Shown piece after piece: positions 1 through 55,719 of a DNA stretch of 64,000 nucleotides. The stretch's first letter is position 1, and the number at the start of each line of letters is the position of its first letter. This stretch comes from Sporopachydermia quercuum (lineage: Eukaryota): the NCBI GenBank assembly GCA_001599295.1, contig BCGN01000012.1, forward strand, positions 124,001 to 188,000. Reading direction: 5' to 3'. The position numbers and the translations under genes are program-made. The notes under the pieces were generated by a model that was not told where the DNA came from, made no database searches, and saw only the letters and a list, made by a program, of their open reading frames with translations.

Positions 1-1677
1 TTGAATTCATCTTTAGGAAATCCATCAGCTGGTCCAAATTCATCTGTTGTTGGTAGTACTGCTAGTACGCCGTCAACAACGATACCACATCAAGGACCTT
101 CAGGGGCCTCTCATTTATCATCCAGTCAACATGTCAATTACTTTCCACCAACAAGTTCCACTCAAGGAGTGGGATTAATACCTCATTCAAATCAAAACGT
201 GACTTACGCTTTGTTTGTTTACAATATTCCATTCAATGTATCCCTAAGAGAGTTCAGGTTGATATTTGCTGTGATACCAGACTATGTGTCCTGTGAATTC
301 AAGAAAACTTCTATTGATGCGAATGATCCTTGTGAAACAAAATTGGGTATTGCACGATTTCATAGTTATCAGAGTGCGCAATATTGTTGTTCGATGCTTG
401 ACGGAAGAGCCGATTTGTTTGAGAATGTAGGAACAACGCTAAGTTCACAATCACCTTCTTTTTTACCAGCAATCCCCTTGAAGTGTGAACTTTTTGGACC
501 ACGACAGTTTCCATCAACAAGTGACAGTTCTGGTTTTATTTCGAAGATGAAAACGCCAAGCGTTAGTAGTCAATCACAAGTAAAAAGTTCAGTGTCTGGT
601 GCTAGTAGTGGAACGACAGCTGGTAATTCTGTTGTAGGTGCAACTGTAACAAATGTGACTGGGCCCCCAACTAATACTGCGGGTATCATTGGAACTGCCA
701 TTGGAACTGGAGCTGCTCCTGTAATTGCGTCCGGAAATACCACTGTAACAACATCTACTAATACACCTACAGGTTCTTCACATTATACGACATCTGCAGT
801 TTCACCTGTTTCAACTAGGTCGTCCTTTTCGGGTGTTTTGTCAGAGCTATCTTCTGCATCTACTTCTACAGGCAGTATACCCAATTCTTCATCAGCAAGT
901 GCAGTAGGTGCTGCTAGAAGCTCAAGGTTTTCATTTTCTCATGATGTTTATCCACCAACTTCACCTTTAGGCGAAGGTAATGCTGCTATTAATAGTACCA
1001 ACGCAAGTAGTGCTAATACAATCAATGGGGGAAGTGCGTCAACATCAGAATCTGAAAAGCCTAATGATAGTAACACTGACGAAGTAGCTAGAACTTTACA
1101 AGATTTAGCAATAAAGTCACCCCCTCAATCACCAATGGCATTAGCAAATGGTGTAGGCCATGGACCAGGACAAATTCCACCTAGCGCAGCCAGCAAAATC
1201 GTCATGCAGTATTCTCCAGGCTCATCATCTACTTCTTTACAAGTATTACAAAGTGGCGGTAGAGTTTTGCCTCCAGCTAATCCCGCTGATCAAAACCCTC
1301 CTTGTAATACATTATATGTTGGAAATTTGCCCATGAATGCTAGCGAAGAAGAGTTAAAAGCTTTATTTTCAACTCAACGTGGTTATAAACGGCTATCATT
1401 CAAGAATAAAGGTAATGGACCAATGTGTTTTGTTGAATTTGAAGATGTTGCATATGCTACTAGAGCCTTAACTGAATTATATGGAAGAGGATTAAGTAAT
1501 TCAGTGAAAGGTGGGATCAGGTTATCATTCTCAAAAAACCCATTGGGCGTTCGAAGTCAAAGTAAAGGAAGCAGCAGCCATCTAAGTAGTAACACTGGTA
1601 ACAGTAATACGAATGGAATCAGCACAAGTGGTTCAGGTAATAACAACTCTCAGAATCATAAGTATGGATGGCGATAA
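1..1677 (+). CDS. WHI3: Whi3/Whi4/Scw1-type RRM RNA-binding protein, 5' end outside window
   Basis: C-terminal [21 protein letters not shown]...[10 protein letters not shown]...[15 protein letters not shown] is the Whi3/Scw1 RRM signature. The ORF is open from base 1 and has Ser/Thr/Asn low-complexity sequence and an N-terminal RRM-like segment (LFVYNIP). Confidence 0.9.
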
Positions 1678-1907
1678 CTACATCCCATGAATGCTTATCC
1701 TACTGATGATACATTCATCTTTTTGTTATTAGTATCAATTTGCATTAGTATTCGGTGAGGTCACTCAAGTTCCTTAATTGCTGGCAAATTCATAGAAAGA
1801 ATTCACATTGATGTATATGTTTTTTAACGCATACCTCAACTCATTTTCATATTATTTTCTGTCATTATTATCGATTATACTATATCAATTTCTCGTTTCT
1901 CATCTCC

Positions 1908-1938
1908 ATGTTATGTTATGTTATGTTATGTTATGTTA
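1908..1938 (+). repeat. (TTATG)n pentanucleotide microsatellite downstream of WHI3
   Basis: atg(ttatg)5tta read directly. Confidence 0.9.
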
Positions 1939-4272
1939 CGTTCTTTTATTTTGTTGTGTTATATAAACTTCTCTCGTCATTATCTTTTTTTTGCTATTGT
2001 CATTCTCTTTCATCTTTTTTTTTTTTTAATTTTGTCTATTTTCAATTCGCGGTGTATTTTATATGATTATTCATGTACCATGTTGTACAGTTCATTCGGC
2101 AAATAATATTCACAGTTGCTTTAATAAATACTGTTAGGAAATGCATAAGAAACCATTTTGCTTTTCCGTTCTTTATTCTGTTAACTAGCTTATTCTTACA
2201 TGTGTATTAAATTATTTGTAAGATCGCTATGAATAAAAATGTGCTAGAAAGAAGATCGCTCTAGTTCGATCAAATTGATTATGTCGTTTATGTTGATCGG
2301 AGCTTCCTACTTTTGGGAAACGTTTCGATATACATATCTTCTATTAAAAAGCAGATTTGATAACTCTTCCGGATAATGATGCCTATATCAAGTATGATTA
2401 CTATATTGACTTATCTGCTTACATTATTTGAAATTTCCTGGACAATATTAGTGATTGATACGGCAATTGAGGAAAAAGAAGAAAAAAAACTCTATCCTAT
2501 TAACTGGTAAAGATTTTTGACTCCAATTCCCAAATTCAGTTTATGAGGACCAATCTGTTTTCCTTTCGCTCCTAACATCTCTCTATTCTCAGACAAGCAG
2601 TATTTCCGATTGCTGTATTTGTCTATTGGGAGCTTCAAGTAAGTCAAATTACAACATTTTTTTCCGCTAGTCCTTGGTATATACCACTGAAGTAGAAATA
2701 GTAATAATTATAATAGTTGTAGTGGCTATAACAGTGGGTATTAAATCTTTGGATATTACATAACCCCTCTTCTCATGTACCTTCCTGTGGAGATGTCATT
2801 GGATCCTCTTTCAGGTATTCACTACGAACCTACTAGATCTACATCTACTACATTGTGTCCTATTTATATGTCACTACAACTTCTGTACCTAGTCAATCTC
2901 TACTTTCAATAATCCAAAATTCAGTATACAAGCTGTTTTTCTTTCTTTTCTTCATATTCGTTATTCACTTTCCTTCTATCGTCCTTTCCTAAGGGAAATG
3001 ATCTATTATCAGTCAACCTCATATCTCACTTTGCTTACAGTTCGAACTGTACCCCCGATTCAAACGTTCTGCGTTGAACTCAAATTTAAGTTTGCACATC
3101 CTCCTCTAACAAAAATACAAGCAAAAAAAACTTGTATGTATACCCCCCCTCCCCAACAACCTTGTCACGTTTTGTCGTATTCCTTCTATTAAGGCATCCA
3201 CTAGATTGCTGGTGGCCTTGTCTTGTTTGTCTTGTCTTTCAATTTCCTCCATGGCAGCTCAGACCCAATCTTAGACCCCATCCTAAAATGCATACTTCAC
3301 AAACTAGTTCATCTTTTCCTCATCATGAGTGCATCCCTCTATAGTTTCTTCTTATTAACTCTTTATAACAGGTTATTATCTAGAATCGAAGTTTGATATA
3401 ATCCATAGAAAAAGCAACAGATTTATCAGTTGACTACTTGATTCAAGTTTCTGTTTATCTGCTAACATTTGCAGTTTGAATTTGGAATTAGGGCTGAGAT
3501 TTTTAGTAAGCAACAATTGAGTGATAGACAAACATTGCGTTGTTAGGATAACAGCTGGTCTTTTTAGAGTAAACCTTAGAGAGGCCTAGTAGTGGAACTG
3601 CTGATATACAGATTTAGATGCTAGAATTATTCATTTGACGTTCCCCTCAACTCACTTTTAGTCTGCTTTAACCTGAATTTTCCTCACTGTTCTGATTTGT
3701 GATAATTACAAGAAACCAACAGGTAGCAACAAGGGACTATTATCTATTGAGCTCTTTACTAGCTTCAAACAGCAAAGCAAAGCAATCAATACGACAGGTT
3801 GAGCTGTTTGATCTACTGATATTACAATCATTATATTGTTCGATCTTAGACTATTAGAAACCAATAATTCATCATACCATACCGCACCATACAAGACAAC
3901 ATTGAATGTTCAACTCCATCCCACAATAAAATATTATCCCTCATATAAATTTCATTACCGTTTGATTATAAACTTTGTTCGCCATTTTGTTAGTCGCCTA
4001 TTTGATCACCTGCTTATCTGTGTTATGTTTTGTTAATCATTAGACCTGGAAACAGCAATAAGCCAAAAGATTAACAAACGGACAGGCAAATACCTCATAG
4101 AACCAAGCTCTAGCCAGCCAACCATCATTATACAAACAGGATATACGAACATCTACCGATTTGATCATACTCCATTGTATTTCCTGTTTACTGCTAGTTC
4201 AGTTATAAATCATAGACATTACCCTTTCATTTGAACCAACAATACAAGATCCGATAGAATAGATTATTCAAA

Positions 4273-7200
4273 ATGGGGTTGCTTTCAAAGAATAAGAAAA
4301 ACAAACATGAAGGAGAAGACGGGAAAGAAGAGAAGAAGTCTCATTTCAGATCCCGGATGTCTTTGAGACGGAAAGATCGGCATTCGCCAGCGGCGCAGGG
4401 CGGCACTTTAGTTGAAACGCAGAAACCCAAGGAGGATTTGGCGTTATTAGAAACAGCAAATGCGATCAGAAAGGTGGAAAAGGAAAATGTAGGTCCTTTA
4501 GAGGTAATAATGGAACCGTTGAACTCAGGTACCCCTACCGAACCCTCGGACAAGGCTCAGGAATCGGAACCGGAACCGAAAGCCAGTACTGCAGAGACCA
4601 CACAACCACCTATTTCGGAAGCTATTACCGAAGCAATTGTTACCGAAGCTGTTCTGACCGAAAGTTTAATTGTGTCGGAAGATGCCCAAGATAACGAGAG
4701 TACGCAAACGTCTTCTGAGGTACCCGGCAACGTATCAGACTTGACACCCACAACTCCTAAGCCACAATCACAGGTACCGCATAACAACCCCCCTTTATCC
4801 CTCACAATTCCTGGTAACAAATCACAAAAAGCTCCTACGCTCGTGACAAAAGATAGAAAAAAGTCTGTGGAGTCGTCTCATTCCGCTTCTTCTGCTAAAT
4901 CAAATGGATCGACCCCCGATACCCCGTCTAGTATTACAAAAACCCCAACTAAAGTTGTGTCAACCAAAGCCGAAATTGCTTTGTTGAATGTCGGATCAAC
5001 CCAGCAACACCCGAAAAAGCTGCACAAATCTCATACATTCTCCAAAATATTTCACAAGGACAAACATTCCAACCCCAATCCCCCCGGGGCCGAAATTGGG
5101 TCCGGTAAGAAAAAGCTCGGCGTTCTAATCAAACGGAACTCGGACGGCATGTCCCCTAATTCTGCCGGCAAAAACACGCACAACGCAACGGTTCAACGAG
5201 CCCAAACAGAACTATTTAGCAAACGGTATCAGCAGCCGACTAATGCTACTTCCACTCCTCTTCTTATTGACGCTACTAAAGGTCTCGGAATAGGATCCCG
5301 AGTTCCCAAAGAGCGGAAAGTATCCTACATGTTTACCGACACTTCAGCCCAGAAACACTATGCATCGGAAGCGGGACATCGGCAGACGGAACACACAGCA
5401 ACCACAGACGATGGAAAACCTAAATTACCGAAACCACAGGAACCAATCAAGTTACCGACGGAAATAGTTACTGATTACTTCAAACCTTTCTGTTTATCTT
5501 CCTTCTCTGAATACGCTCATTATTATACAACTTTGGAACGGCCTATTGAAGTTGAGACTCTGAACCCAAATAACCGGCCTGGTACATATATGAAGAAAAT
5601 GACGTTCCGAAGCCGGGGTCTCGGAACGGGAGCCACATGTGCCGTCATTACCGTTTGCCGGAAGTCATCCAATCATGTGTTTGCCCTGAAGAAGTTTAAC
5701 ACGTTTTTGTATAAGACGGAAACATATGAACAATATTACAAGCGGATAAGCCGAGAGTTTAAACTAGCGAAAAACCTAAAACATCCGAATTTAGTGCGGA
5801 CGTTTGCATTACTTAAACTGGAAAACAACCCGGGAGATGTCTACACAGACATCCCACCAAGTAATAATACTACTACTACTACTAATAAGAACAATAGTGT
5901 GAAGGCGCCGGTGCTAGAACCATCTTTAGGGCACGGACTTGGAATTGTCCTGGAGTATTGTGACTCGGGAGATTTATTCACTGTTTTAATGTCCCATCGG
6001 AAGTACGGACATCTCATGCCATTAGACGAACGGACATGTATATTCAAACAGATTGTGCGTGGTGTTGCTTATTTACATAAGAACGGAATAGTCCATCGGG
6101 ACATAAAACCGGAAAACATCTTGGTGAACTCCCGGAACGAAATAAAGTTAACCGACTTCGGCACCTGTGAATTTGCTTATCAATACGACGGAGACGAGGA
6201 GGATATTTATACCCAAATTGGGAGATTGGATTACCGCCCCGATATTTCAAAGCTCGGAGCAAGCCGGAAGCAACAACAGAAAGAATTTAAAGTTAAAAAA
6301 AGCTCTAAGTTCGTTGGATCCACACCTTATTTAGCACCCGAAGTAATGGCGGTGAAAGAACAAGGTTTATCCGCTCCGTCTTATGATCCGTTCAAAGTTG
6401 ATGTCTGGGCTTTGGGTGTTACCCTGTTCAACATTGAATTCTCATCGTTGCCGTGGCAAGAGCCGAATATGCTGGAAACGAATTATCGGGAGTACGTCCA
6501 GCATTATGAGTCGACTATTTTGAATATGCAAGGGTTCCGGGAGACGAAATTGAGTAAGAAGCGGATAATTTTACTGAATTCTATTAATCAAGATGCAGCG
6601 GAAACAATGGCGGCAAACGTAGTAATGGCGAATGCGAATAACGGAAGTGGAAGCGGAAGCGGAATTGGAAGTGCCGTCGGTATTGGAAATAATAGTGGAC
6701 TTAATAGTATGAATAACAGCGGAGTCGGAATCAATTCCGGGCCTCCTGATGGACTAGCTCACGACGGAACGGGTGTCGCGCCATTCGGTCATAGCCATAA
6801 TGGAAGCGCCGCTAGCCTAGAACATTTTTCGTCGTCTTCAACTTCCTTGGCGCTACTGAACTCTACTCCAGCTTCTGGTTCTGGGGATCGGAACGGGTTC
6901 ACGACCCATTCACATATCCAGTACTCGTTGGTAAACGGCAACGGAAATCATGGCGGAACCAATAGTAACCACGCCATGACTCGGATCCGAACGCTTCCGC
7001 CTCCGTTAACTAAAATTATACTTTTTATGCTTGATCCAAAAGCGGAAACCCGGGCCACAGTCTTTGAGATTCTACATAACCCGTTTTTGGACGATTTTGA
7101 GACATGTGTTGACGATTATGATTTGGATTTTCCCGAGGTTTATGAGGATTTGTATGAGGGAGACGATCGGTTTACCGATGGTGAAGGTTCCGATGCCCAA

Positions 7201-8451
7201 TGTGCGGAGTGTGCAGAAGCAACTATGAGATGCGCGGAATGCGGATATGGTGACAGAACGGAGAAAGATGGAAACAGTTCCGATCCGAATTCGGAGAAAG
7301 TCGGAACAGAGGATGAAGATAAAGATAAAGATAGTCATCAATCGCATGTTCACGGACATAATCACGGACTCAGACTTACCCAAACGCTAAGTCACGTGCA
7401 TGACCAGATACATTCACATGCTCAGCAGAAACTACATGATTTACATGACTTCCACAGTCATGCGCATGAACATTTGCATGTATCGAGTCTCAAACATGAC
7501 CACGGACATGACAACGGCCATGGCCATGAACACAGACATATACATTTATTGACACGTCCGTCCCAGTTTGTAATCAGTGAATCGGATACTGATTCCTCGG
7601 AATCTGATTCTACTTCTGTTTCGGCATCAGAAGCAGGTTCCGCTAGGCAATCTTTTAGTTCAGTTGGTGTGTCACAGGCAGTGAAATCCATGTTGGATTT
7701 TTCCGGAAGCGGCAATTCTCGGGGAGCTAATAGCGGAAGCAATAGCGGAGGCATAGGAAGTATCGGAAGTGAACGAGATAATTTAGTCGCGGAAACAACG
7801 CATGCTAAAGAGTCCGATATTATTTCCGGTTTTACCCCTGAAAAGACAACCAGAGCGGAAACTATAGCAGCTCCTCAAACTTATCGATCTTTATTTGACC
7901 CTATACCAGACACAGTTAAGTCGACCTTCAAAAAGCAGTCAATCACGCCGCCCAAAAGAACAGCAACTAATAGTAATTATAAAAGTATGCTAGGTGGTGC
8001 AGGCGGAGCAAATGAAGCAGCGGAAGAGAAAGTAGAAACAATACCGGAAGACAGAGCGGAAACTATATCCTCCACTTCACACTCTATTACCCAATCCCCC
8101 GCTTTACACCCAGTTCCAGCCTCCGCCCCTCATTTACAATCACAAGCACTGTCTGTCACCCCACCAGCTTCCACAGAACTTAAACCAATCGACTTCCCGA
8201 AACTAGAATCAAAAGCGTCTTCAATCGCAAGCTCCTCTGGAGTATTGTCGGACCACGGCATTTCTGCTTCCCAGAATAACAATAAAAACAATAGAAGCAC
8301 TTCAAGTGCAAGTTCCATTGCTCCCCAGGGAAGGAAATATGGCTTAAGTGTAAGGCAAAGAAGCTGTTCAACAGCAATGGTGAAAGAGTATAAGAATATA
8401 ATCAAATCCAAGAAGAAACCGAAACATCACCATCAATCTTATCATCCATAG
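4273..8451 (+). CDS. Ser/Thr protein kinase, NPR/HAL family, closest to Ptk1/Ptk2 type (1392 aa)
   Basis: Motifs GTGATCAV, FALKK, YYKRISREF, HRDIKPEN, KLTDFG, GSTPYLAPE and DVWALG. Long disordered N- and C-termini, an Asn/Gly insert in the C-lobe and a His-rich tail. Confidence 0.88.
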   Translation: MGLLSKNKKNKHEGEDGKEEKKSHFRSRMSLRRKDRHSPAAQGGTLVETQKPKEDLALLETANAIRKVEKENVGPLEVIMEPLNSGTPTEPSDKAQESEPEPKASTAETTQPPISEAITEAIVTEAVLTESLIVSEDAQDNESTQTSSEVPGNVSDLTPTTPKPQSQVPHNNPPLSLTIPGNKSQKAPTLVTKDRKKSVESSHSASSAKSNGSTPDTPSSITKTPTKVVSTKAEIALLNVGSTQQHPKKLHKSHTFSKIFHKDKHSNPNPPGAEIGSGKKKLGVLIKRNSDGMSPNSAGKNTHNATVQRAQTELFSKRYQQPTNATSTPLLIDATKGLGIGSRVPKERKVSYMFTDTSAQKHYASEAGHRQTEHTATTDDGKPKLPKPQEPIKLPTEIVTDYFKPFCLSSFSEYAHYYTTLERPIEVETLNPNNRPGTYMKKMTFRSRGLGTGATCAVITVCRKSSNHVFALKKFNTFLYKTETYEQYYKRISREFKLAKNLKHPNLVRTFALLKLENNPGDVYTDIPPSNNTTTTTNKNNSVKAPVLEPSLGHGLGIVLEYCDSGDLFTVLMSHRKYGHLMPLDERTCIFKQIVRGVAYLHKNGIVHRDIKPENILVNSRNEIKLTDFGTCEFAYQYDGDEEDIYTQIGRLDYRPDISKLGASRKQQQKEFKVKKSSKFVGSTPYLAPEVMAVKEQGLSAPSYDPFKVDVWALGVTLFNIEFSSLPWQEPNMLETNYREYVQHYESTILNMQGFRETKLSKKRIILLNSINQDAAETMAANVVMANANNGSGSGSGIGSAVGIGNNSGLNSMNNSGVGINSGPPDGLAHDGTGVAPFGHSHNGSAASLEHFSSSSTSLALLNSTPASGSGDRNGFTTHSHIQYSLVNGNGNHGGTNSNHAMTRIRTLPPPLTKIILFMLDPKAETRATVFEILHNPFLDDFETCVDDYDLDFPEVYEDLYEGDDRFTDGEGSDAQCAECAEATMRCAECGYGDRTEKDGNSSDPNSEKVGTEDEDKDKDSHQSHVHGHNHGLRLTQTLSHVHDQIHSHAQQKLHDLHDFHSHAHEHLHVSSLKHDHGHDNGHGHEHRHIHLLTRPSQFVISESDTDSSESDSTSVSASEAGSARQSFSSVGVSQAVKSMLDFSGSGNSRGANSGSNSGGIGSIGSERDNLVAETTHAKESDIISGFTPEKTTRAETIAAPQTYRSLFDPIPDTVKSTFKKQSITPPKRTATNSNYKSMLGGAGGANEAAEEKVETIPEDRAETISSTSHSITQSPALHPVPASAPHLQSQALSVTPPASTELKPIDFPKLESKASSIASSSGVLSDHGISASQNNNKNNRSTSSASSIAPQGRKYGLSVRQRSCSTAMVKEYKNIIKSKKKPKHHHQSYHP

Positions 8452-10225
8452 GATAGGTGTATTATGAGAGGTCGAGCTGTAGGTTGAAGTATGTTTAGTG
8501 TATTAGTATGTATGTTGGAAACAGTATGGTTTTCAAGAAAGGAGTTGGATGTGATAGGCAAGCATGTTGAGTGACGTGAGCCATAAGCTGCTTCAACCCG
8601 CTCCTGCTTTTCATTCTCTATGATTGCAATTGTATTGGTTTGGCTGCTTTNTCGGCTGATGACAACGTGAAAGTTAAATGGCGCAACAACCTAGTTTATA
8701 TATTGTATCTGTGGTGCAGGAACCGGAGATTACTCATAATAAAACGTTACTTAGAAACAATAAANTGAAATCAAAGTGTAGATTGATGATGACGTTTATT
8801 TATTCGAAGATTCCTTCTCACTCTCTGTGACCTTTTCCCTTCCAGTAACTTTACTTCATTGATAAATGTTGTACACCAATAGGCATTCAAATTATCTCAC
8901 ATTCATTTGGTATCAGACAGAATCATGACAAATGGTTGCTTATCATAAATGAGATTCTAATAGAATCAATGAAGAACCACTTATAAATGTTTCTACAGAC
9001 TTAAATAAGTATAGATAAATTGTTCCATAGCATTAGAGATCGCAGGTACACGCTATGCTATGGCTTCCTTCATCTCCCTTTGTTTTTGATGGATATATGC
9101 TACATTATTCATTAATATGCATTGAAATTGTCTACACTGTGCTATTTGTTTATTTGTTCCTTTATTCCCGGCCAATATCCCATTCCGAACGAGTATTTAC
9201 GGCTCTTTGGCTTTGGTTACTATTTATTTATGGAATTTATTGTACTTATGCATTGTCAAGCTTCCAATAGCTGTCTGTGATGCTCTGTCATTTATTTAGT
9301 TCATTTATCATATATTGAACCTTTTATTGAAGCTGTTTAATGAAATTCTATTCGTACGTACCTGAATAATTGGTAATCAACAGAATGAGCGCCCAGCAGA
9401 TCCACAGTTACTGCAAAAGAGTGAGAGACGTTGATACTTGACAGAATTCTTCTGCAAGAAAAGAAGTGCCAAACGACTTGAGAAATGATAGTATAAATTT
9501 GTTTTTAAATATAAAGTGAATTACCAGGGAAGTTGCGGTACGATTCTAAGAGAATATTGAATATTGATAGGACAAGTAAACAGCTTTGAGAGCTTGTTTA
9601 GCAGCTTTTCCTCGCTTATTAGTGAACAGTTACTACAAAGGGCCCAACAATAGGGTAATTGTTGTGCTGAAGAGGCATCGTTGTGTCACAAACATGATAC
9701 GATAGCAGTTGAGAGTTGATAGTTGATAATTCGGAAAGCTGATAGTGAAGTAAATGGTTTGGTAATATTCAGCTGAATATTTGCAAAAAGAAAGTCCAGT
9801 TTATTAAATTGCAGTTTAGAATATAAATGTTCAACATATCATTTAACAAAAAATACTAGATGTTCATTGTTTGTGGTGTTGGATTATTCAGTTAGATGCG
9901 TATGGTTTCAAATTGTGCTGTATGTATTATATGTATTATCTCGTATTACATTGCATTATAGTAAATTATATATTNAATTATTCAATAGATCTGACTCAAT
10001 AGTTGACTTACCTGTTAGCATCAGATATATATTATTCTATTGAGGATTCTAACCTTCAAGCCAGAATACAATCCATCTCAAAGTTTATCATTACCTATTG
10101 TACCAGACGTACAATATAATCTATGTAGGTTATATAAACATTAGTTATATTATACTATTTCATCTTTTCACATCGTTAAAATCTCAAAGATCGCTTACAT
10201 TCTCTTCCTGCTTTCCTTTCTTTCA

Positions 10226-21721: not shown

Positions 21722-22587
21722 GATAACTGTAGTTTTAGAAGTAAACGATGTGCCTTGTACTTTCTGATGCTTTACTGTGTATTTAGAAGAGTGCAGCTGG
21801 TGATACAATGTGCAATTCGATGTTCTATTTGTTGATAAAGGAAGATCTATTTGTATATGTATATATGTATATCTATGTATATCTATGTATATAAGTTCGG
21901 TTTCTAGACGAGCGTTTATGCAGATGAATGGAACGTGATACCAAGAACCAAAGGTACAATATGATGAATATGATGAATTTATAGGTAATGTTCGCTATGT
22001 GCCTAGGCTGGCTTATATTGTGGTCACAGAAGGTATAGCATATGAATACAGCACAAGTCAATGTTGGAAGTAATGGTTATCTCATGACTACAACTACTGG
22101 GATTGATAACTGAATTCTTTGAACAACTGATTAACAGCTTCACAGCACATATATTCATAGAATACAACGGAGTGAGCAACGTTGCATCTTTTCCTGTTTC
22201 GGGGAAATATACAAGGTAGGTGGGAGTAAAGAATACTGAAATGATATATTGGAAAGATCTTTTCCGTAATTCTTTTCCCGTTGATCAGTATTCAGAACAA
22301 ACACTCCTGCGGACAATGCGCTCCTTCATTCTTCTACCAAGNATTAAAGAATTGGAGCTCACTTTGCAGCTACTTTAAACTGCCTTTCTTATATTATGTA
22401 TAACTTATATCTGTCTCATAGATAAATAAATACCCATCACATAGTAGAAATTACTGATGACTTCTATTTTACTATTCTCATGCACTTCTTTTTGCTTATC
22501 TATTTACTCTTTATCTCCGTAGTTCTCCTCTCCCATTTGCCTAACAATATCCGAAGTCTTTTATCAGTAATTTCCTGTTTTCGGCGT

Positions 22588-22613
22588 TCGGAAGTTTTGT
22601 GAAAATTCCGAGG
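22588..22613. promoter_or_regulatory. Candidate fatty-acid response element (CGG-N16-CCG imperfect palindrome overlapping CCGAGG)
   Basis: TCGGAAGTTTTGTGAAAATTCCGAGG about 1.3 kb upstream of the PTS1-bearing CoA ligase. Confidence 0.4.
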
Positions 22614-23911
22614 AACCAAAGAAGCATTCTCAGTATACGGAAGAATTGCGGAAATGATAAATACATAGGGGGTGTATCTAGAGATAACATGGAAGTCGGA
22701 ATTTATAATTGATGATGGTGACGATGATGATGGTGCTTGCAAGATTAAGGATAAAATGGTTACTTCATTGTTATTTACATTGATTTCTAGATTTTCCTGT
22801 TTGTCATGAAAGGAGGAGATTTTAAGAATTATACCTGCTGTTGTTGCATTTTCTGTTCAAAATAAGCGAGCGCGTAGTAGTTCGGTGCCTACATTACCAT
22901 ACTCTCAGTAGCCTAATACTATCTAATCTACAATAAAGTGTCTGCCTAGGTTCTAGGCAGGTTGGTAGCACAAAGAACGTTCAATGGTAGCAGCCTTATT
23001 GAATTATTTCTGAAAACCTATAATTTATAGATTAGATATCCTATTTCACTACTGGTCATTTATTCAAAATGTCGGTGATTCATTTAATGCTTTACTTGCC
23101 GATGGGCTCCGAGAACATTAGTGATAACCTGTATAATTTCCATAATTTGACACGTACGGAAACCATACCGGTCTTATCATCAATGATAACTCATCTACAA
23201 GAAAACCATAATGAACGAATAATAGAAACCGTTCAGTAATGATGACAATAACAAGAAAATGGTGAAAAACTAGTGAATATTTATTCTATATTTGAATAGA
23301 ATCTAATTACCGGGTTTGATATTAGTTAATAGTTTGGAGTATTTCGGAACACTGCATCGTCGGGTGATCCGCTTAGGTTGATTGCTCCTCTTCTCATAGG
23401 TATTCACGTTTCTACCGCTAAATAGCTATTATTGCATATAGTAATAGCCTCACTGTTAACGATATTGATATCTTTTTCACCCTCTTTTCACTCTCACTTT
23501 TTATTCTCGCTATTTGTTCAATCACCGCAACTTATTCATGCCATCCTCTCATTCTTACCGATTGGATATTATTTCCGAAATGCTTGCGTATAAATGCAAT
23601 TTAAAGTTCAGATCAGAGTGTGGAGAAATAAAGTTTCAGGCTAAAATCTCAAACATTAAGTCCATCTCCGCCATTTTTAAAGAATATTTCACCGTATTTC
23701 ACCGTTTTCCTCTCCTTTGACCTATAAAAGTAATTGATTTCCCCGATTAAACAACAAAAACCGTTGAAGAACAGGTAAATAGTTTGAATTGACTACTAAT
23801 TTATCTACTTTACTACTTTCTCTTCCTATACTTTCAGGATATAGCAGATTGTATCATAGTCTTTTCTTATGCTTAGCAGCTGTTGAAACAGAGTATTAAA
23901 TAGAATATATT

Positions 23912-25552
23912 ATGACAGAACACATTTTGCGATCGAAACGATCACCAACTGCACAATTATTCAAAGGAAACTGCTCCTTATACAGCAGAAACCAACCGCA
24001 TTCTTATTCTGATGATGTTTGCTATGTGGAATCTCACACGGGACATAGTGTGACATTTAAGCAATTCTGGGACAAAGTTGAGGCTGCTACCTATTTATTA
24101 GCTAATAAGTTCAACATTAAAGACGGAGACGTCATTGCTCTTTTCGCAGAATCAAGCATTCTTGTCCCAATTGTTCATCATGCTGTCTTGTCCCTAGGTG
24201 GTATCATCAGTCCCATTAATGTAGGATACAACGCTGAAGAGTATCATCATTGCTTGACAACAGCTGGTATCAAGTACTCTTTCACTGGTCATCAGTATGT
24301 TAAGGTAGCTGAGGACGCAGCAAAACTAGGAGGAAACGTCAACCCAGGACATTCTCTTGTCCATATTGAAGAGTTTGCCAAGTTACTTGACCAGGAGACC
24401 CATAGACAAGGACCCATTTTGATATCAGAAGAGGAAGCAGCTAAGAAGATTGCCTATTTGTGTTTTTCATCTGGGACATCAGGAAACCCCAAGGCTGTTA
24501 TGTTGACACATCTAAACATTTCTTCCAATTCTCAAATGACTCGTCAAGTTGATGACACAACTTTTGCTGAACGAGCCACCTTTTTAGCAGTTTTACCGTT
24601 AACTCATATTTTTGGTTTGCAATTGTACCTTCATTTGTCGTTGTGTGTTGGATTCAAGGCAGTGATAAGCCGTAAATTTGATTTGGCACATTTCCTTGAA
24701 ACAATTATCAAATATGAAGTTACCCACACAGCTTTGGTTCCACCAATTTTAGTGGTATTAGCAAAGCATCCATTGATTGATCAGTTCCCTGACATTTCCA
24801 AGACACTGAAGTTCATTATTAGTGGTGCAGCTCCTTTGTCAGATACTTTGGCTCATGCTGTCATGGACAGAATTCGTGTTAAAGTTGTCCAAGGTTATGG
24901 ACTTACAGAGACATCTCCAGTTGCTATGTTGTCAGGAATTGAAGATCCTGCTCCTCCTGGAGCTGCTGGTAGATTATTGCCTTACCAAGAATGCCGTTTG
25001 ATTGATGAAGAAGGCAAAGATGTCACGCAGTTACATACAAAAGGTGAAGTATGGCTAAGAGGACCAAATATCATGCTTGGATACTTCAACAATGAAGCAG
25101 CGACAAAAGACTGCATGACGCCTGACGGATGGTTCAAAACCGGTGACGTTGCTATTATTGAAGAGAATGGCTTATTCTATATTGTGGATAGAATCAAGGA
25201 ACTTATTAAGAGTAAGGGACACCAGGTGGCCCCTGCTGAACTTGAAGCTATATTACTTACTCATCCTTCTGTATTGGACTGTGCTGTCACAGGCGTTAAG
25301 GACGAGGAAAACCAAACTGAACTGCCACGGGGGTATATTGTGTTTGCAGAAGGGGCTGACATATTTGCAGTTAAAGCTTGGTTTGATGCTAAGGTAGCAA
25401 GACATAAGCGATTGTGGGGCGGAATCGTTCCAGTGGATGCAGTCCCCAAATCACCCTCAGGTAAGATTTTGAGAAGATATTTACGCGATCGCAAGCATGA
25501 CAAAGCTTTATATGTTGGAGATGCAACTAAGATGAATAAGGCTAAATTGTAA
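23912..25552 (+). CDS. Peroxisomal 4-coumarate-CoA-ligase-like acyl/aryl-CoA ligase (AMP-binding; similar to Yarrowia Aal type)
   Basis: YLCFSSGTSGNPKAV, QGYGLTETSP, GEVWLRGP, GWFKTGD, DRIKELIK, PKSPSGKILR; C-terminal PTS1 -AKL. Confidence 0.9.
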   Translation: MTEHILRSKRSPTAQLFKGNCSLYSRNQPHSYSDDVCYVESHTGHSVTFKQFWDKVEAATYLLANKFNIKDGDVIALFAESSILVPIVHHAVLSLGGIISPINVGYNAEEYHHCLTTAGIKYSFTGHQYVKVAEDAAKLGGNVNPGHSLVHIEEFAKLLDQETHRQGPILISEEEAAKKIAYLCFSSGTSGNPKAVMLTHLNISSNSQMTRQVDDTTFAERATFLAVLPLTHIFGLQLYLHLSLCVGFKAVISRKFDLAHFLETIIKYEVTHTALVPPILVVLAKHPLIDQFPDISKTLKFIISGAAPLSDTLAHAVMDRIRVKVVQGYGLTETSPVAMLSGIEDPAPPGAAGRLLPYQECRLIDEEGKDVTQLHTKGEVWLRGPNIMLGYFNNEAATKDCMTPDGWFKTGDVAIIEENGLFYIVDRIKELIKSKGHQVAPAELEAILLTHPSVLDCAVTGVKDEENQTELPRGYIVFAEGADIFAVKAWFDAKVARHKRLWGGIVPVDAVPKSPSGKILRRYLRDRKHDKALYVGDATKMNKAKL

Positions 25553-28472: not shown

Positions 28473-30466
28473 ATGCGTTACTCTCTTACTTTTGCTGGTA
28501 CGCTCGCTTTATACGCTGGTCTCACCAAGGCCCAAAACAGTGAGTATTTGATTTGATTTGATGTCTTCAATTGAGGAAAACAATGGTAATTTTTTGTGGA
28601 TCAAAATGTCGATGTTCAGGGGTATGTACGAAGAATCATGGTCTAGGGCAAGTCTTCCGCCTTTGGATTGATTAACCATCGTGAAAAAGAAATTGGGGAG
28701 GTTATCACACGAGTGCTATTAATTTAAAGAAGTGGCAGCACTTATATATATATTTTTGGTTTCAATCTGTATTGAACGAATAATGGAAGGTGAACTATAG
28801 ATCAAGAACAATCATGACCCCACAGATCAGAAGGCACAAGAGGCAATGGTAGTTTAATCCTACGAGTACGACAACTGCAGCTTCCTCTTGTTTTTTATTC
28901 CGAGATAATATAATCATTTGTTTGATATACAATCAGTATTTGGGATTTGTATATATTTTCATTCATTCACTTTCCAAACTCATTTCACATCTTATTTTCT
29001 TCGGTGTGATTTTCGTTTCTTCGATTTTCGATCGATGTGACAAACTGATTGGTTCTAATTGTGCATTGGTACGCAGAATTGAACAATGGAATCTAAAAAT
29101 AGATATTTGTCACGACAAAAATATGAGCGGGACCCAAACCTTAATTTGGGTTTACGACTTAGGATTAGGATGTCCTGACAAGGCACGACAATTGGTTCAC
29201 ATAGAGTTCTTTGAACTGTTTTTTCTTTCTTTTTCTTTTCAAATAAGCGTCTTACTAACAGCCTAAATAGGTACCTCTGTTGGTACTAGAGTCCAAAGCG
29301 GATGCTCCTTTAGCACCTATACTGTCACTGCCGCCGCTGATTTTGACACCTTAGCTGCCTGTAGCACCTTGGTCGGTGACGTTGTCATTGCTGGTGACAT
29401 TCAAGTCGCTAATCTTGCTGGTGTCGAAGCCATCGCAGGTTCTTTGATCATCACCGACAACCAAAACTTAACTCAACTCTCTGCTGATAGTTTAACCACC
29501 ATTACTGAAAAATTCACCATCCACGACTCTACAGAGCTTGCTGGTTTGACTTTTCCTTCTTTGACCACTGTTGGTTATGTTGACTTCATCTCTATCCCCA
29601 CTCTTAGTAACTTGGGATTTTCCAGTGTTATTACTAACGCTGATGACGTTGTCATCTCCAACACTGGTTTGAGTGAATTGACCGGTATCGATGTTACACA
29701 GGTTGGTATCTACGACATCAACAACAACAGATACTTACACACTATCACTACTGGTTTGATTTCTGCCTCTGACTACATTACCATCGCTGCTAACGGTGCT
29801 GGTTCCGGTAATTCTTTAGTTGCTTCTTTCCCTGAACTTGTCTGGGCTAGAAATGCTACTTTCAGAGATTTAGATGAAGTCGCTCTCCCCAAGTTGGAGT
29901 ATGTTAATGGTTCTTTGTCTTTCACCAACACCAGTGTTACAGAAATTGAGCTTATTATCACTGATCTTGGTGGATCATTATCTTTCATTGCCAATGACGA
30001 CTTAAGCAGCATCAGTTTAGAAAACTTGACCAGCATTGGTGGTGGTTTTGTCATTGCTAACAACAGTGCTTTGGACACCATTGACGGTTTCCCTAACCTT
30101 GAAACAGTTGGAGGTGCTATTGAACTTGTTGGAAGTTTCAACAATGCTACTTTCCCATCTTTGAGGGCTGTTTCTGGTGGTGTTTCAGTTGAAAGTGATG
30201 GTGAAGACTTCTCCTGTGATGAATTTAGCGAAAAGGAAAAGAGAGGTGTTATCAGAGGTAATTCTTACCAATGTGTTGCTGGTGAATCATCCACCTCTGT
30301 ATCTTTGACTGCTTCTACTGACAGTGATTCCGCTACCTCTGCGGGATCAGATTCAGATTCATCTTCTGCTACCTCCACCTCTTCTGATGATGGTGCTTAC
30401 GCCAATGGTGTCACCGGATCTGTTGCCCTTGGTGCCATTGCTGCCGCTATTTTCAATTTCCTCTAA
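28473..30466 (+). CDS. ECM33: Ecm33/Pst1-family GPI-anchored cell-wall protein; exons 28473-28539 and 29271-30466
   Basis: Signal-peptide exon MRYSLTFAGTLALYAGLTKAQN, then intron GTGAGT..TACTAAC..TAG (731 nt). Receptor-L-like repeats (LxxIGG, FPxLxxVGG), Ser-rich linker and hydrophobic GPI tail. Confidence 0.92.
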
Positions 30467-39465: not shown

Positions 39466-41037
39466 ATGTCAGGAGGTGTTGATTATCTGTTGTTTGAAGA
39501 AGCAACAGGATATGCTTTGTACAAGGTTGATTTGCAACAAGATGAAATTGGAAGTCGGTTGAAAGAAGTTCAAGCCGCTGCTCAAGATCTTGGTAAATTT
39601 GGAAAATTAGTGACACTTGTTTCATTTGCTCCTTTCAAGACTGCCGCACAAGCTCTTGAAAATGCCAATGATATCTCTGAAGGCATTGTCGGTGATTACC
39701 TTAAGTCTGTTTTAGAACTCAACATCCCTAAGGGATCTGAAAAGAACAGAGTTGTTTTAGGAATTTCGGACAAGAACCTTGGTCCTAGTATCAAAGAAAT
39801 TTTCCCTTATATTGATTGTGTGTCTAGCGAAGTTGTACAAGATTTACTTAGAGGTATCAGATATCATGGATTCAAGTTGTTGAAGGACTTACAAGAAGGT
39901 GATTTAGAAAGAGCGCAACTAGGTCTCAGTCATGCTTATTCCAGAGCCAAGGTTAAGTTCTCTGTTCAAAAGAATGATAACCATATTATACAAGCTATTG
40001 CGTTATTAGACCAGTTAGATAAAGATATTAACACTTTTGCTATGAGAGTTAAAGAATGGTACGGATGGCACTTCCCTGAATTAACAAAGATTGTCTCTGA
40101 TAACTATATCTTTGCCAAATTGGTTTTGATGATCAAGGACAAGGCTTCATTGAACGAAGATTCTCTTCATGATATTGCTGCTTTAGTTAACGATGATGCT
40201 GGTATTGCTCAACAAGTAATTGACGCTGCCAGGATAAGTATGGGACAAGATATTTCCGATGTTGATATGTTAAATGTTACTACTTTTGCTACCCGTGTTG
40301 TTGATATCACAGACTATAGAAATAAATTGTATTCTTACCTTGTTGGTAAGATGCACACTGTTGCTCCTAATTTGTCAGAATTGATTGGTGAAGTTATTGG
40401 AGCCAGATTGATCTCCCATGCTGGTTCTTTGACCAATTTATCTAAATACCCTGCATCTACTGTTCAAATTCTTGGTGCTGAAAAGGCTTTATTCAGAGCT
40501 TTGAAAACCAAGGGGAATACCCCTAAGTACGGATTGATTTATCATTCCACTTTCATTGGAAGAGCAGGTTCAAAGAATAAGGGTAGAATCTCTAGATACT
40601 TAGCTAACAAATGTTCTATTGCTTCCCGTATTGATTCCTTCTCTGATATTCCTACATCTAAATTTGGTGAAGTTTTGAAGAAGCAAGTAGAAGAAAGATT
40701 GAATTTCTACGATTCAGGTGTTGCTCCTACCAAGAATGCCGATGCCATGAAGGAGGCTATGGAATTAGCTTTAGCTAACATTCCTGATGGAACTTCTGTG
40801 ATCAAGGATGACATCGAAATTGATGAAGAAGATTCTGATGACAGTTCAGACGAAGAGAAGGAGGACAAGAAGGAAAAGAAGAAGGAAAAGAAGGATAAGA
40901 AAGACAAAAAGGGTAAGAAGGAAAAGAAAGAGAAGAAAGACAAAAAGGATAAAAAGGACAAAAAGGAAAAGAAAGAGAAAAAGCGAAAATCTGATGATTC
41001 TGAAAGTCCCAAAAAAGCCAAGAAATCAAAGAAATAG
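39466..41037 (+). CDS. NOP56: Box C/D snoRNP core protein Nop56
   Basis: LGLSHAYSRAKVKFSVQKNDNHIIQAIALLDQLDKDINTFAMRVKEWYGWHFPEL; KYPASTVQILGAEKALFRALK; KKE/D tail. Confidence 0.97.
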   Translation: MSGGVDYLLFEEATGYALYKVDLQQDEIGSRLKEVQAAAQDLGKFGKLVTLVSFAPFKTAAQALENANDISEGIVGDYLKSVLELNIPKGSEKNRVVLGISDKNLGPSIKEIFPYIDCVSSEVVQDLLRGIRYHGFKLLKDLQEGDLERAQLGLSHAYSRAKVKFSVQKNDNHIIQAIALLDQLDKDINTFAMRVKEWYGWHFPELTKIVSDNYIFAKLVLMIKDKASLNEDSLHDIAALVNDDAGIAQQVIDAARISMGQDISDVDMLNVTTFATRVVDITDYRNKLYSYLVGKMHTVAPNLSELIGEVIGARLISHAGSLTNLSKYPASTVQILGAEKALFRALKTKGNTPKYGLIYHSTFIGRAGSKNKGRISRYLANKCSIASRIDSFSDIPTSKFGEVLKKQVEERLNFYDSGVAPTKNADAMKEAMELALANIPDGTSVIKDDIEIDEEDSDDSSDEEKEDKKEKKKEKKDKKDKKGKKEKKEKKDKKDKKDKKEKKEKKRKSDDSESPKKAKKSKK

Positions 41038-52193: not shown

Positions 52194-53652
52194 TTTTTAA
52201 CTTTGATATCAATACTTTCCTTACTGTATTTTATCCCTTTTATTCCTGTGAAAAATGTATAAGTATATTGGTATATTCTCGTTATAACTGTTGATCATTA
52301 ATAGTAGGTGAGTTTATTTCTTTGCAATCATGAAATTTGTCAAACCTCATTTTTCATCACTGTTTGATGAGTAGAAAGAGTAATTGTTATATCAGGGTAA
52401 TATTAAAAGTAGAAGGAGACGTTATGTCAAATGAAAATAAAAGTGTGATTGTGCGTATTAATTGCATAACGTACATATTTTTAAACCTTATATATTACAA
52501 CCTGTTCGAATTGAAGGCCACTAACTCTTCTTCTGCTGGTACGTTATTTGGTCAATAGAACTGATTCTGATTAGGTTATTGAAAAGAGACTTGTGGATCG
52601 AAGCAATGCGGACAAATTGGGAATTGTATTTACAGTTCAATGGAGAGAAAGCGTGCTCATAACACGCAGCGTCATCAAGTAAACCGATTACTATGAAATA
52701 TTGATTCCTACCGAGACTGATTGGAGTAGAAACCAGGTATCGAATGTTTCTAGGACGAATCCATTATTTGTTTTCAAAGGATTGATATCAGTAGACTTAC
52801 TAATATAATGATGACTAACTGCTTTTGTCCATCAGATATGTATGATTTGATCCAGATTCCATGCAAAGGTTAAGGCGCCATATACCCGCATTGTCTGACA
52901 CTGCCTTATTTATTACAACATTTCCGACGTTGGCTCTAATTATAGAAACATATTAATTTACCGTTGATCACTTTATCAATTCCGAATTCTTACCTGCACT
53001 CTCACTTTTAATTGTTAAATAATATATTATACTCCGATATTCATATTGTTTCCGATTCATTGGTAAATCACGGAAATAATCACTTACTACCATTTCTGCT
53101 GTTAGTTCTAGGTGTTACCCATTGGACTGATTTAGATTCTTGAGTAGACAACTAGAATATATCAATTTAATGAAATACTGTTATGGTCATAAATCAAAAT
53201 TGGTATCCAATTCTAGCCTTAACCCTTTTCTATCTTGACCTTTCTTTATTTCTCAATATCCCACTCATTCCACTGGTTCCACAATCTGCACATCCCATCT
53301 CAACTCATCACCCAATTACGGAAAGGATCTGCCTTATCTCCGATATTATCGGGGGCATCTCGAGATTGCTAGACCTCCTGAAACCAAGCTGTATACCCAA
53401 ATTGGACTAGTTACCACATAATTACACCTATTTTATGTAACTAAGGGTACACATCCCATTCACAGGGCGCACCCTTTTCCAATCTTATCAACAAACTCAT
53501 CATTATTCATAAACAGTCCTCTTTCCAACAGGTTTTAATGAAAGCCATCAATCAGCTTCTACTAGTTAACACAGAAACGCTACATGTTAAAAGCATTGTA
53601 GTTATCAGTGAATTGATTAAATCAAGGACACACCACATATCCTTTAACAACA

Positions 53653-55200
53653 ATGACCTCAATTGACATTTCGACCTATGGACGCGAGATCAAAAAAGCC
53701 TACGATTCCATTGTAGCAAACGATCCTTCAATTTCCTGGGTTTTACTGAACTACGGTGCAGGTTTATCGAACACGGTGAAACCTGTCGCTGAAGGTGCTT
53801 CCGATCTAGAAGATTTCCTTGAAGAGTTTGACGACGGTAAAGTACAGTATGGGTTTGTTAGAGTATCTGACCCAAATACCAATTTACCTAAATATGTATT
53901 AATTGGCTGGTGTGGAGAAGGCGTACCAGAGAGAGCTAAAGGATATTTTAACTCACATTTCAGCGCAATTGCTAAGATTTTTCCAAGTTATCATGTTCAA
54001 ATCACTGCTCGTTCAATTGATGATTTATCTGCGTCAGAGATTCTCAGGAAGGTCGAGAATGCATCTGGTTCTAAATATTCCCTTCATAGTAAAGCAGTCC
54101 CAGTGAAGCCAAAGTACTCTTCTCATCATACATCATCAGGTGCTAAAGAAGAAGACTGGGGTGACGCTCCTCCAGTTGTTGAATCAGAAATTACAAAAGT
54201 TCCTACTGCATATAAGCCTACAAAAGTTGATATTGCTAGTTTGAAAGCTAAGGCCAAACCTGTTCCACCCCCTAGTACTAAGAAGGTTGATATAGATAGC
54301 ATTAAACAGGAATCCAAAGCCACTGGATTAGACAAATTCAACTCCAAGCCTGAACCTGTGAAAGGTGCTTATGTTCCAATTGGAAAAGTCGATATTGCTG
54401 CCATTAGAGCTAAAGCTAAAGCTGCTGGTTTAGATAAGTTTGAAGACAAACCTGAACCTGTGAGAGGTGCTTATGTTCCTATAGGCAAAGTTGATATTGA
54501 CTCCATTAAGAGAAAGGCAAGTGCTAAAGCTGATTTTGCTGAGTCTTCTTCTAGCAGAGTTCCTGTCTCCAGATATGAACCTGAAACTAGTGGTAAGACA
54601 GCTGACGAAGAAGAAGAAGAAGAAGAAGACATTGATCAGGAACCCAAATCATTAAAAGATAGAATGAAGACTTTTCAAAAGAGTGAAAGGTTAACTGAAC
54701 TTCCTAAGCCGAAGGTTGAGAAGTCAGTATTGTCCAGATTTACTCCTGAAGGAAGATCTACCACTATTCATACTCCTAATCCTTTAGGCTTCCAATCAAA
54801 GGCTAACATTGTTGGTGGTGCTAGCAGAAACTTTGCTGCTGAAGGTGGTAAAACCCCGGCTCAAATTTGGGCAGAAAAACACGGCAAAGCTTCTCCATCT
54901 AATGGACCCTCAGAACCCGANGATGCTCATCATGATGAAGATGAAGAAAAAATCGATACTGAAGATATCGAGCCTGTTGATGAGATCAGATCTAAGTTTT
55001 CCCATGCTAATATCAACGACAACGACGATGGAGATGTTCATGGCAACGTTTCTAGTTTCAGCCAAAGGTCTAGTGTGTTATATGGACGACAACAGGAAGA
55101 AAAGGAAGAGGAAGAGCACGAAGAAGAAGAAGAGGAAGCTAGATACGTTCCTCCGCCCCCACCTGCTTCTACTAGACCTGTGACTGCACCTGCTCCTGTT

Positions 55201-55236
<36 letters not shown>

Positions 55237-55719
55237 TCATTTCCAGCTCCAGAATCAGCACCTGTACCACAGGCAAATGAAGAAGCTCAATCAGGAGCTG
55301 TTGCTATCGCTGAATTTGACTACGAAAAGGCAGAAGATAATGAGATTGCTTTTGCAGAAGGAGAAAAAATCACTGCTATCAAGTTCGTTGATGAAGATTG
55401 GTGGCTTGGTACCAACGCTTCGGGCGAAAGAGGTCTTTTCCCTAGAACATATGTTGAACTTATCGATGGAGAATCAGCAGGACGTGCTGAGCCTGAACCC
55501 GAAGCTGAACCGGAAGCTGAAGATGAAGAACCAAGCGCTGCAGGTGGCCCATCAGCTGTTGCACAATACGATTACGAAGCGGCAGAAAGCAATGAAATAT
55601 CATTTAATGAAAACGACGTTATCACTAATATTGAGTTTGTTGACGATGATTGGTGGTTGGGCTCTGTCAATAACGAACGAGGCTTATTTCCATCCAATTA
55701 TGTCGAACTTTCACAGTAA
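53653..55719 (+). CDS. ABP1: Actin-binding protein Abp1 (ADF-H plus two SH3 domains)
   Basis: N-terminal ADF-H (KVQYGFVRV..KYVLIGWCGEGVP), KTPAQIWAEK, Pro-rich linker and two SH3 domains (AEFDYE..WWLG..GLFP). Confidence 0.94.
55201..55236 (+). repeat. (CCAGAA)6 coding microsatellite (PE repeat in Abp1)
   Basis: Read directly. Confidence 0.9.

Follow-up and report, generated by a model that had tools for sequence, protein, structure and literature searches.

Does a protein-coding gene of a yeast carry a second signal, written in its nucleotides and laid over the message for its protein? We examined this question for a protein-kinase gene in a 64 kb window of Sporopachydermia quercuum DNA (assembly GCA_001599295.1, contig BCGN01000012.1, forward-strand positions 124,001 to 188,000; the window is the whole stretch analysed, and positions below are counted from its first letter). 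An earlier inspection of the letters, here called the sequence-only reading, had noticed an excess of CGG trinucleotides in the kinase open reading frame (ORF) and proposed that a second code might overlie it. Signals that overlap coding DNA are usually visible only as weak genome-wide statistics. The kinase gene displays a many-fold, strand-specific and frame-independent enrichment of a five-base word, CGGAA, which also marks the sequence of the protein. The finding is based on one gene in one genome and is informative either way. If the words are maintained by selection, they would constitute a rare and directly testable gene-specific regulatory array inside an ORF, open to synonymous recoding. 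If they stem from directional mutation or conversion instead, the process responsible would be unusually sharp in its choice of sequence context and would be confined to one gene.

The size of the CGG excess

The kinase ORF contains 106 CGG (25.4 per kb), 65 CGGA, 15 CGGG and 40 CGGAA, together with 71 CCG and 226 CG. For comparison we used the 17 other ORFs of at least 150 amino acids in the window, leaving out the ORF at 55277-55822, which overlaps that at 53653-55719. The CGG density of these ORFs ranges from 1.1 to 9.7 per kb, and that of the non-ORF DNA of the window is 3.7 per kb. CGGAA occurs 77 times on the + strand of the window, with 40 of these occurrences in the 4.2 kb kinase ORF. 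When 840-nt segments are taken every 120 nt across the whole 64 kb, they hold a mean of 4.5 CGG and a maximum of 30, and every one of the 25 richest segments starts between 4321 and 7441.

The hand counts of the sequence-only reading proved exact, with 26 CGG in 5341-6180 as against four each in 1-840 and 39481-40320. Its description of the words is also accurate. Within 5341-6180 most of the 26 are CGGA (15) or CGGG (six). Across the ORF, the words appear as CGG codons for Arg (26) and also straddle codon borders (36 as NCG-G and 44 as NNC-GG, with the hyphen marking the border), and the example string that it had quoted is indeed present (Table 1). The neighbouring ORFs, as it had stated, prefer AGA, which accounts for 55% of their Arg codons with CGG at 3%, while CGG accounts for 49% in the kinase. 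The signal fades beyond the coding sequence, with one CGG in the 600 nt upstream and two in the 600 nt downstream. A separate observation concerns the CpG dinucleotide: it is depleted in the 17 ordinary ORFs, which hold 13-37 CG per kb at about 40% GC, or about half of the expectation, and stands at expectation in the kinase ORF, with 54 CG per kb.

The excess with the protein sequence held fixed

We compared the gene with resampled sequences that encode the same protein. Synonymous classes follow the standard genetic code; if the host reads CTG as Ser, 11 CTG codons change class and the result is materially the same. With codons drawn from the usage of the neighbours, 28.9 CGG (standard deviation 4.7) and 5.0 CGGAA are expected, which places the 106 CGG observed at z 16, beside the 40 CGGAA observed. 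Re-weighting the neighbour usage to the third-position composition of the kinase, and hence to its G+C content at third codon positions (GC3, 0.42), raises the expectation to 44.2 CGG (standard deviation 5.6; z 10.9) and 7.5 CGGAA, and none of 1000 resamples attains 106 CGG. Loss of the excess under control for amino-acid content and GC3 had been named beforehand as the outcome that would speak against it; the excess persists under this control.

Permuting the gene's own codons among their synonymous positions yields 77.0 CGG (z 5.5), 35.0 CGGA against the 65 observed (z 6.8) and 15.8 CGGAA (z 7.6), in line with the earlier contention that codon preference alone is insufficient. The same permutation accounts for the total of CG dinucleotides (226 against 216 expected; z 1.4). 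The excess over neighbour usage amounts to 77 CGG, of which roughly 48 come from shifted codon usage and 29 from codon adjacency. No other trinucleotide departs as far from its expectation with the protein fixed as CGG (z 15.1) and CCG (z 8.9).

The contrast with the neighbours is equally visible in the possible places of a word, that is, the positions where the protein permits it synonymously. CGG is realised in 106 of 274 such places in the kinase (0.39) against 99 of 1341 in the neighbours (0.074), and CGGAA in 40 of 96 (0.42) against 16 of 338 (0.047). Taken singly, the 17 other ORFs realise CGG in 0.02-0.16 of their possible places. The idea that such an excess might be typical of lowly expressed genes hence fails among these neighbours, to which the comparison extends.

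None of chance, amino-acid content, GC3 or own codon usage suffices to explain the excess under these models. Relaxed codon usage is ruled out too, as the local non-coding DNA is poor in CGG. The CGG words would accordingly run against the local mutational pressure and need a force that maintains them.

Composition and context of the word

The core word is CGGA(A): the base after CGG is A in 61% of cases and the next one is A in 59%, with T being avoided. Each frame contributes. CGG supplies 26 of the 53 Arg codons against 12 of 350 in the 17 other ORFs (Fisher p 2e-17), the NCG-G frame is used in 36/134 against 34/654 cases (Fisher p 2.5e-12), and the NNC-GG frame in 44/87 against 53/337 (Fisher p 1e-10). 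The use of these codons depends on what follows them. In the kinase, the third base of NCN codons is G in 18 of 31 cases when GAA follows, in 3 of 7 when GAG does, in 3 of 9 with GAC and in 1 of 11 with GAT; the neighbours have G in 6 of 117 cases before GAA. Codons with a pyrimidine ending end in C before GGA in 26/38 cases, against 21/83 in the neighbours, and Arg followed by A is encoded by CGG in 14 of 23 cases. NNC before A is at the level of the neighbours (0.41 versus 0.39). Before a base other than G (A, C or T), NCG is used at 0.18-0.25 in the kinase and at 0.05-0.11 in the neighbours.

Across the gene, the share of NCG codons is 14-31% as against 5-7% in the neighbours, and that of GGA is 50% as against 36%. 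Four synonymous shifts meet in the one word, namely AGA to CGG, NCT to NCG (chiefly before GAA), NNT to NNC before GGA, and GGT to GGA after C, and no single mutation type yields all of them. Outside the C-G and C-C contexts codon choice is near that of the neighbours, as is seen for TAT, TTT, CAT and the Leu codons. Other departures are found in CCC (69 against 35.7 expected), in CCG (71 against 26.8 under neighbour codon usage; z 9) and in the share of T at third positions (0.295 against 0.396 expected).

Two further peculiarities of the ORF may be recorded here. It contains fewer A runs than its own codon usage predicts (14 AAAAA against 28.9, no AAAAAT against 5.4), and out-of-frame TGA in the third frame (+2 offset, NNT-GA) occurs 40 times, as against 82.6 per 4179 nt in the neighbours.

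Strand, position along the gene and residue order

The extended word prefers the sense strand: the reverse complement of CGGAA fills only 10 of its 67 possible places (0.15), as against 0.42 for the sense word. Relative to the own-codon permutation, the reverse complements are devoid of a context effect (TCCG 21 against 21.2, TTCCG 10 against 6.5, CCG 71 against 63.4). On the sense strand, CCG is followed by A-rich sequence rather than preceded by T-rich sequence.

The first CGG lies 47 nt past the ATG, at 4320, and the words are spaced in a near-random manner (coefficient of variation of the spacing 1.06-1.12). In 300-nt bins from 4273 to 7572, the share of possible CGG places realised is 0.40-0.53, except for 0.19 in 4573-4872. 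Thereafter it drops to 0.32, 0.19 and 0.14 toward the stop codon, and in the last 131 codons all four Arg codons are AGA or AGG. The catalytic domain is at least as loaded with CGG as the rest of the protein (26/49 versus 80/225 possible places).

The words have also left an imprint on the order of the residues. The kinase protein offers 96 CGGAA-compatible places, compared to 70-73 after its residues are shuffled (z 4.1 globally, z 3.5 within 30-residue blocks), and the 17 other proteins together offer 338 compared to 332 after shuffling. The effect is present in every frame (z 1.7, 2.4 and 2.6). For instance, Ala-Glu pairs number 12 against 6.0 expected, while Ala-Asp pairs are absent against 4.5 expected.

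A candidate signal on the transcript

The excess beyond the gene's own codon usage makes a nucleotide-level second code the most economical reading. To this extent the original proposal of a code overlying the gene stands (z 5.5-7.6 in the own-codon permutation), whereas its specific versions, zinc-cluster sites and a translation-slowing device, found no support in the specific tests detailed below. The convergence of several mutational routes on one word, in all frames, mainly on the sense strand, from the ATG onward and with a bias in residue order, looks like the mark of a force acting on the nucleotides of the transcript and not on codons.

We tentatively suggest, as the reading that we place first but hold with considerable doubt, that the CGGA(A) array is a set of sense-strand cis-elements. 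With about one CGG per 40 nt, sense-biased and independent of frame, atop an unusually CpG-rich codon usage, it would form a cis-acting signal maintained by nucleotide-level selection rather than by directional mutation or conversion bias. The signal would be read at the level of RNA rather than DNA, either on the mRNA or in the course of transcription, by a putative sequence-specific factor that sets the fate of the message through its stability, localisation or translation, as is the case for other arrays of motifs within coding regions. On the same tentative footing, the second code may be phrased more broadly as about 100 sense CGG(A/A) words in three frames that bend codon choice and residue order, with either an RNA-binding protein or a zinc-cluster factor acting as a roadblock as the candidate reader. 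If this is true, the expression of this transporter-regulating kinase would depend on a CGG-reading factor, and the reader of the array would represent a hitherto undescribed regulator of a kinase of the HAL5/PTK2 type.

Several points weigh against this proposal. We know of no yeast RNA-binding protein with specificity for CGGA(A). An RNA motif alone leaves unexplained the raised use of NCG before bases other than G, as well as the excess of CCG and CCC, and the waning over the last 575 nt of the ORF is not predicted by a simple binding platform. The CGGAA sites have a predicted probability of being unpaired of 0.062, compared to 0.089 in synonymous shuffles (z -1.0), and the kinase mRNA is not predicted to be more structured than such shuffles (z +1.6). 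A second contig with CGG past a 32-nt match, described below, may hint at a class of genes rather than a single message.

Alternative explanations

A neutral origin, in which a context-specific bias of mutation, repair or gene conversion turns sites into CGG and CCG with a transcription-linked strand skew and drags the residue order along, strikes us as unlikely, even though parts of the pattern suit it. CGG and CCG both exceed what the codons of the neighbours predict (z 16 and 9), and unequally on the two strands, which is what transcription-modulated symmetric processes would give; the old, alignable catalytic domain is fuller than the fast-turning arms, which fits slow accumulation; and an imprint on residue order is likewise expected under a strong bias. 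However, at least four types of substitution meet in the one word, and we know of no mutational process with such a converging signature. The flanks and the 17 other ORFs are unaffected, including the likely highly transcribed eIF3a, NOP56 and ADH, the GC3 is far below that of strong GC-biased conversion, and a plateau of about 3.3 kb with an abrupt start at the ATG is unlike a conversion gradient from a promoter hotspot. A different history, with most of the ORF derived from a CGGA-rich lineage by introgression, retroposition of a paralogue or recombination and not yet ameliorated, appears very improbable to us. A single outlier gene amid ordinary flanks is what such an import would leave, the waning at the 3' end resembles a nearby junction, and the genome may hold a second CGG-rich locus. 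Nevertheless, the bins show no sharp boundary (0.50, 0.32, 0.19, 0.14), and an import merely shifts the question to the donor. The foreign origin entertained by the sequence-only reading is also at odds with the nearest homologues, which are budding-yeast kinases from the same broad group as the homologues of NOP56, and with a codon choice that is neighbour-like outside the C-G and C-C contexts. With ordinary flanks, a shift limited to those contexts and budding-yeast relatives, the gene does not behave as a compositional island.

The two remaining alternatives place the signal in the DNA and in the codons, respectively. An array of Zn2Cys6 half-sites in the gene body, to which a CGG-reading factor would bind so as to block or modulate RNA polymerase II, or which would act as a decoy, is in our estimate rather improbable. 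It would account for CGG and its complement CCG as the most deviant trinucleotides; a cluster of CGGAA/TTCCG in intergenic DNA of the window makes a factor for such words plausible in this yeast; and Rgt1 is documented as a synergistic binder of multiple CGGANNA copies (PMC3639059). Set against this are the strand bias of the extended word, with a context effect in the sense orientation alone, and the ending of the words at the ORF borders, short of the promoter. Sites of the Rgt1 type, as had been envisaged, are not apparent, for the A at position 7 is not enriched (CGGANNA in 17 of 65 CGGA, the same proportion as the 7.3 of 35 in shuffles). Paired half-sites fare no better: inverted, everted and direct CGG/CCG pairs all lack a preferred spacing, no spacing of 0-23 stands out among the inverted pairs, and isolated bins of direct CGG pairs (z 2.5-4.6) track the overall excess (78 against 39.6, about the square of 106/77). 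We are aware of no precedent for about 100 intragenic zinc-cluster sites, and a limited literature search returned none. A translational throttle, in which rare codons (CGG, NCG, GGA) and codon pairs tie the output of the gene to scarce tRNAs such as tRNA-Arg(CCG), seems to us similarly improbable. The shifts in Arg, NCG and GGA codons described above are of the required kind, about 48 of the 77 excess CGG come from codon usage alone (77.0 against 28.9), and the effect is limited to the translated region, a border that only the ribosome recognises. Yet 80 of the 106 CGG straddle codon borders in the two other frames, with a context reaching the fifth base, and nothing similar is seen in those other ORFs of the window that are presumably weakly expressed. 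The suggested slowing of translation is not seen for known inhibitory codon pairs, of which there is one against 1.84 expected (for the 17 such pairs of S. cerevisiae).

As regards the intergenic words, CGGAA/TTCCG occur outside the kinase at about 1.2 per kb, with both strands summed. Five of them fall within about 120 nt of intergenic DNA at 22580-22700, some 1.2 kb upstream of an AMP-binding (acyl-CoA-synthetase-like) gene at 23912-25552; judged by its words, this group looks like zinc-cluster-type sites in a promoter region of this yeast. Two further groups are not significant alone after scanning: a loose one of four words in 500 nt of intergenic DNA upstream of the kinase (2164-2662), and one of five words upstream of the ABP1-like gene at 53653 (52922-53319).

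Repeats, overlapping features and other words

We also considered carriers other than a dispersed word. The five other frames of the kinase ORF hold 46-105 stops, with a longest open stretch of 139 codons, and reveal no overlapping ORF. Repeats are rejected as the carrier, given that tandem repeats total less than 300 nt, dispersed repeats are words of 14-27 nt and the CGG spacing is near-random. RNA structure is rejected likewise: in mean folding energy the native sequence is a little less stable than its synonymous shuffles (z +1.6), 37 of 40 of which are at least as stable. An Rfam search of the kinase gave nothing above threshold, the sole hit being mir-60 at 26.8 bits against a threshold of 67. 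Avoidance of poly(A)-, Nrd1/Nab3- or Whi3-type words is not borne out as the driver by word counts; the Nrd1/Nab3-type words are just mildly depleted in the kinase and the canonical poly(A)-type words are not depleted. A limited search of the literature turned up no yeast ORF described as bearing such a gene-specific overlay of CGG or CGGAA, and no tRNA gene was found in the 64 kb window.

The Gly/Ser repeat of the kinase (Table 1) has a counterpart elsewhere. Another contig of this organism, 27,986 nt long, contains a 32-nt match, with 2 differences, to positions 6642-6673 of this repeat, and its next 30 letters past the match hold two CGG, which would both be in frame provided that the reading frame continues. 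This contig may carry another CGG-rich gene or a paralogue of the kinase.

Comparison with known systems

The closest documented analogue of the kinase array is found in the DSR arrays of fission-yeast meiotic transcripts, in which Mmi1 reads repeats of the hexanucleotide UNAAAC and thereby marks the transcripts (PMC4077057). The likeness lies in many short sense-strand words without fixed spacing, which in DSR act at the RNA level and determine what becomes of specific messages (PMC4077057); the kinase CGGA(A) words, too, are present in many sense-strand copies in any frame. Apart from the word and the organism, the two differ in that DSR are regional clusters of about ten motifs, compared to about 100 over 4 kb here, and in that the reader of DSR is known, whereas that of the kinase array is putative. 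The Rgt1 sites of the S. cerevisiae HXT promoters share a CGGA core and a multiplicity of copies, which act together at HXT (PMC3639059). However, those sites lie in promoters, while the kinase words lie in the ORF, are strand-biased and are without enrichment of A at position 7.

Yeast ORFs are described as carrying RNA-protein information via codon choice, as in the 'backmasking' of Nrd1/Nab3 words in S. cerevisiae, which similarly amounts to a second RNA-protein layer in coding DNA realised through synonymous choice (PMC5041482). It differs from the case at hand in being genome-wide, mostly a depletion on the sense strand and concerned with other words, whereas the kinase represents a many-fold enrichment in one gene. 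Codon usage has also been described as shaped so that premature cleavage and polyadenylation are suppressed (PMC5869017), and the kinase gene, a long ORF in an AT-rich genome with fewer T-ending codons and fewer A runs, resembles that situation. Yet this would explain a general rise in GC3 and not a specific pentamer. Finally, in tRNA-dependent translational control by gene-specific codon bias (PMC12918127, PMC10702489), the usage of one gene likewise lies far from that of the genome. Those cases are in-frame, however, while two thirds of the kinase words straddle codon borders.

The kinase and its neighbourhood

The catalytic domain of the kinase matches the Pfam family with 146.6 bits (cut-off 31.7; E 1.2e-42) and is flanked on both sides by long low-complexity (disordered) arms. 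Its HRD and DFG motifs are invariant in an alignment with 10 homologues, and the arginine of the HRD motif is encoded by CGG. In a collection of 5.8 billion proteins (best 120 of 959 matches), the closest homologues share 32-36% identity over the catalytic region, and the named homologues among the matches listed are budding-yeast kinases, including 'PTK2' of Spathaspora sp. JA1 and a 'HAL protein kinase'. The protein may on this basis be HAL5/PTK2-like, a putative assignment by named relatives at only 32-36% identity. NOP56 in the same window has its best matches, at no more than 79% identity, in Babjeviella and Scheffersomyces. The match levels of NOP56 and the kinase indicate that the source is a budding yeast to which nothing in that protein collection is closely related, and the kinase, judged by its protein, looks native. 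In a metagenome scan, the best 80 matches (79 distinct loci) were distant kinases of 22-43% identity that gave no usable orthologue DNA, with the exception in identity of one match of 48 residues at 60% (locus L038).

Three public DNA runs, which belong to two studies and may include the source of the window, have contigs that contain the stretch 3500-9500 without differing letters. The identical letters rule out an assembly artefact, within the limited independence of these runs.

Table 1. Features of the kinase gene, in positions of the window
Feature	Position	Strand	Remarks
Protein-kinase ORF	4273-8451	+	1392 codons; sole ORF of at least 100 amino acids in 3000-10000
CGG span, first to last in the ORF	4320-8256	+	106 CGG, 65 CGGA, 40 CGGAA
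Example string of the sequence-only reading	5362-5391	+	four CGG within 30 nt, in two frames
Catalytic domain	5614-6579	+	residues 448-769; Pfam Pkinase (PF00069)
Gly/Ser repeat of GGAAGC-type units	6640-6681	+	sole site where tandem repetition adds to the CGGAA count
3' tail with waning overlay	7873-8451	+	6/35 possible CGG places used in the last 575 nt

The remaining ORFs in the window belong to ordinary yeast genes, among them those for an RRM protein, SUR7, Las1, NAD kinase, an AMP-binding enzyme, eIF3a, NOP56, COQ9, ADH, heme lyase and an ABP1-like protein. Single letters N (n=21) and one NN are spread across 8651-56559 at about 0.4 per kb, with zero in 1-8650; the first N of the window stands 200 nt past the stop codon of the kinase, and these letters may be ambiguity codes or masked positions. 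Upstream of the kinase, the intergenic DNA at 2750-3500 is strongly C-rich on the + strand, with a GC skew down to -0.38. At 28853-30466 (+), two adjoining open stretches of 137 and 399 codons lie in one frame with a single stop between them, outside the set of ATG-started ORFs of at least 150 amino acids; the second stretch matches the Receptor L domain (E 1.4e-8), as found in wall proteins of the Ecm33/Sps2 type.

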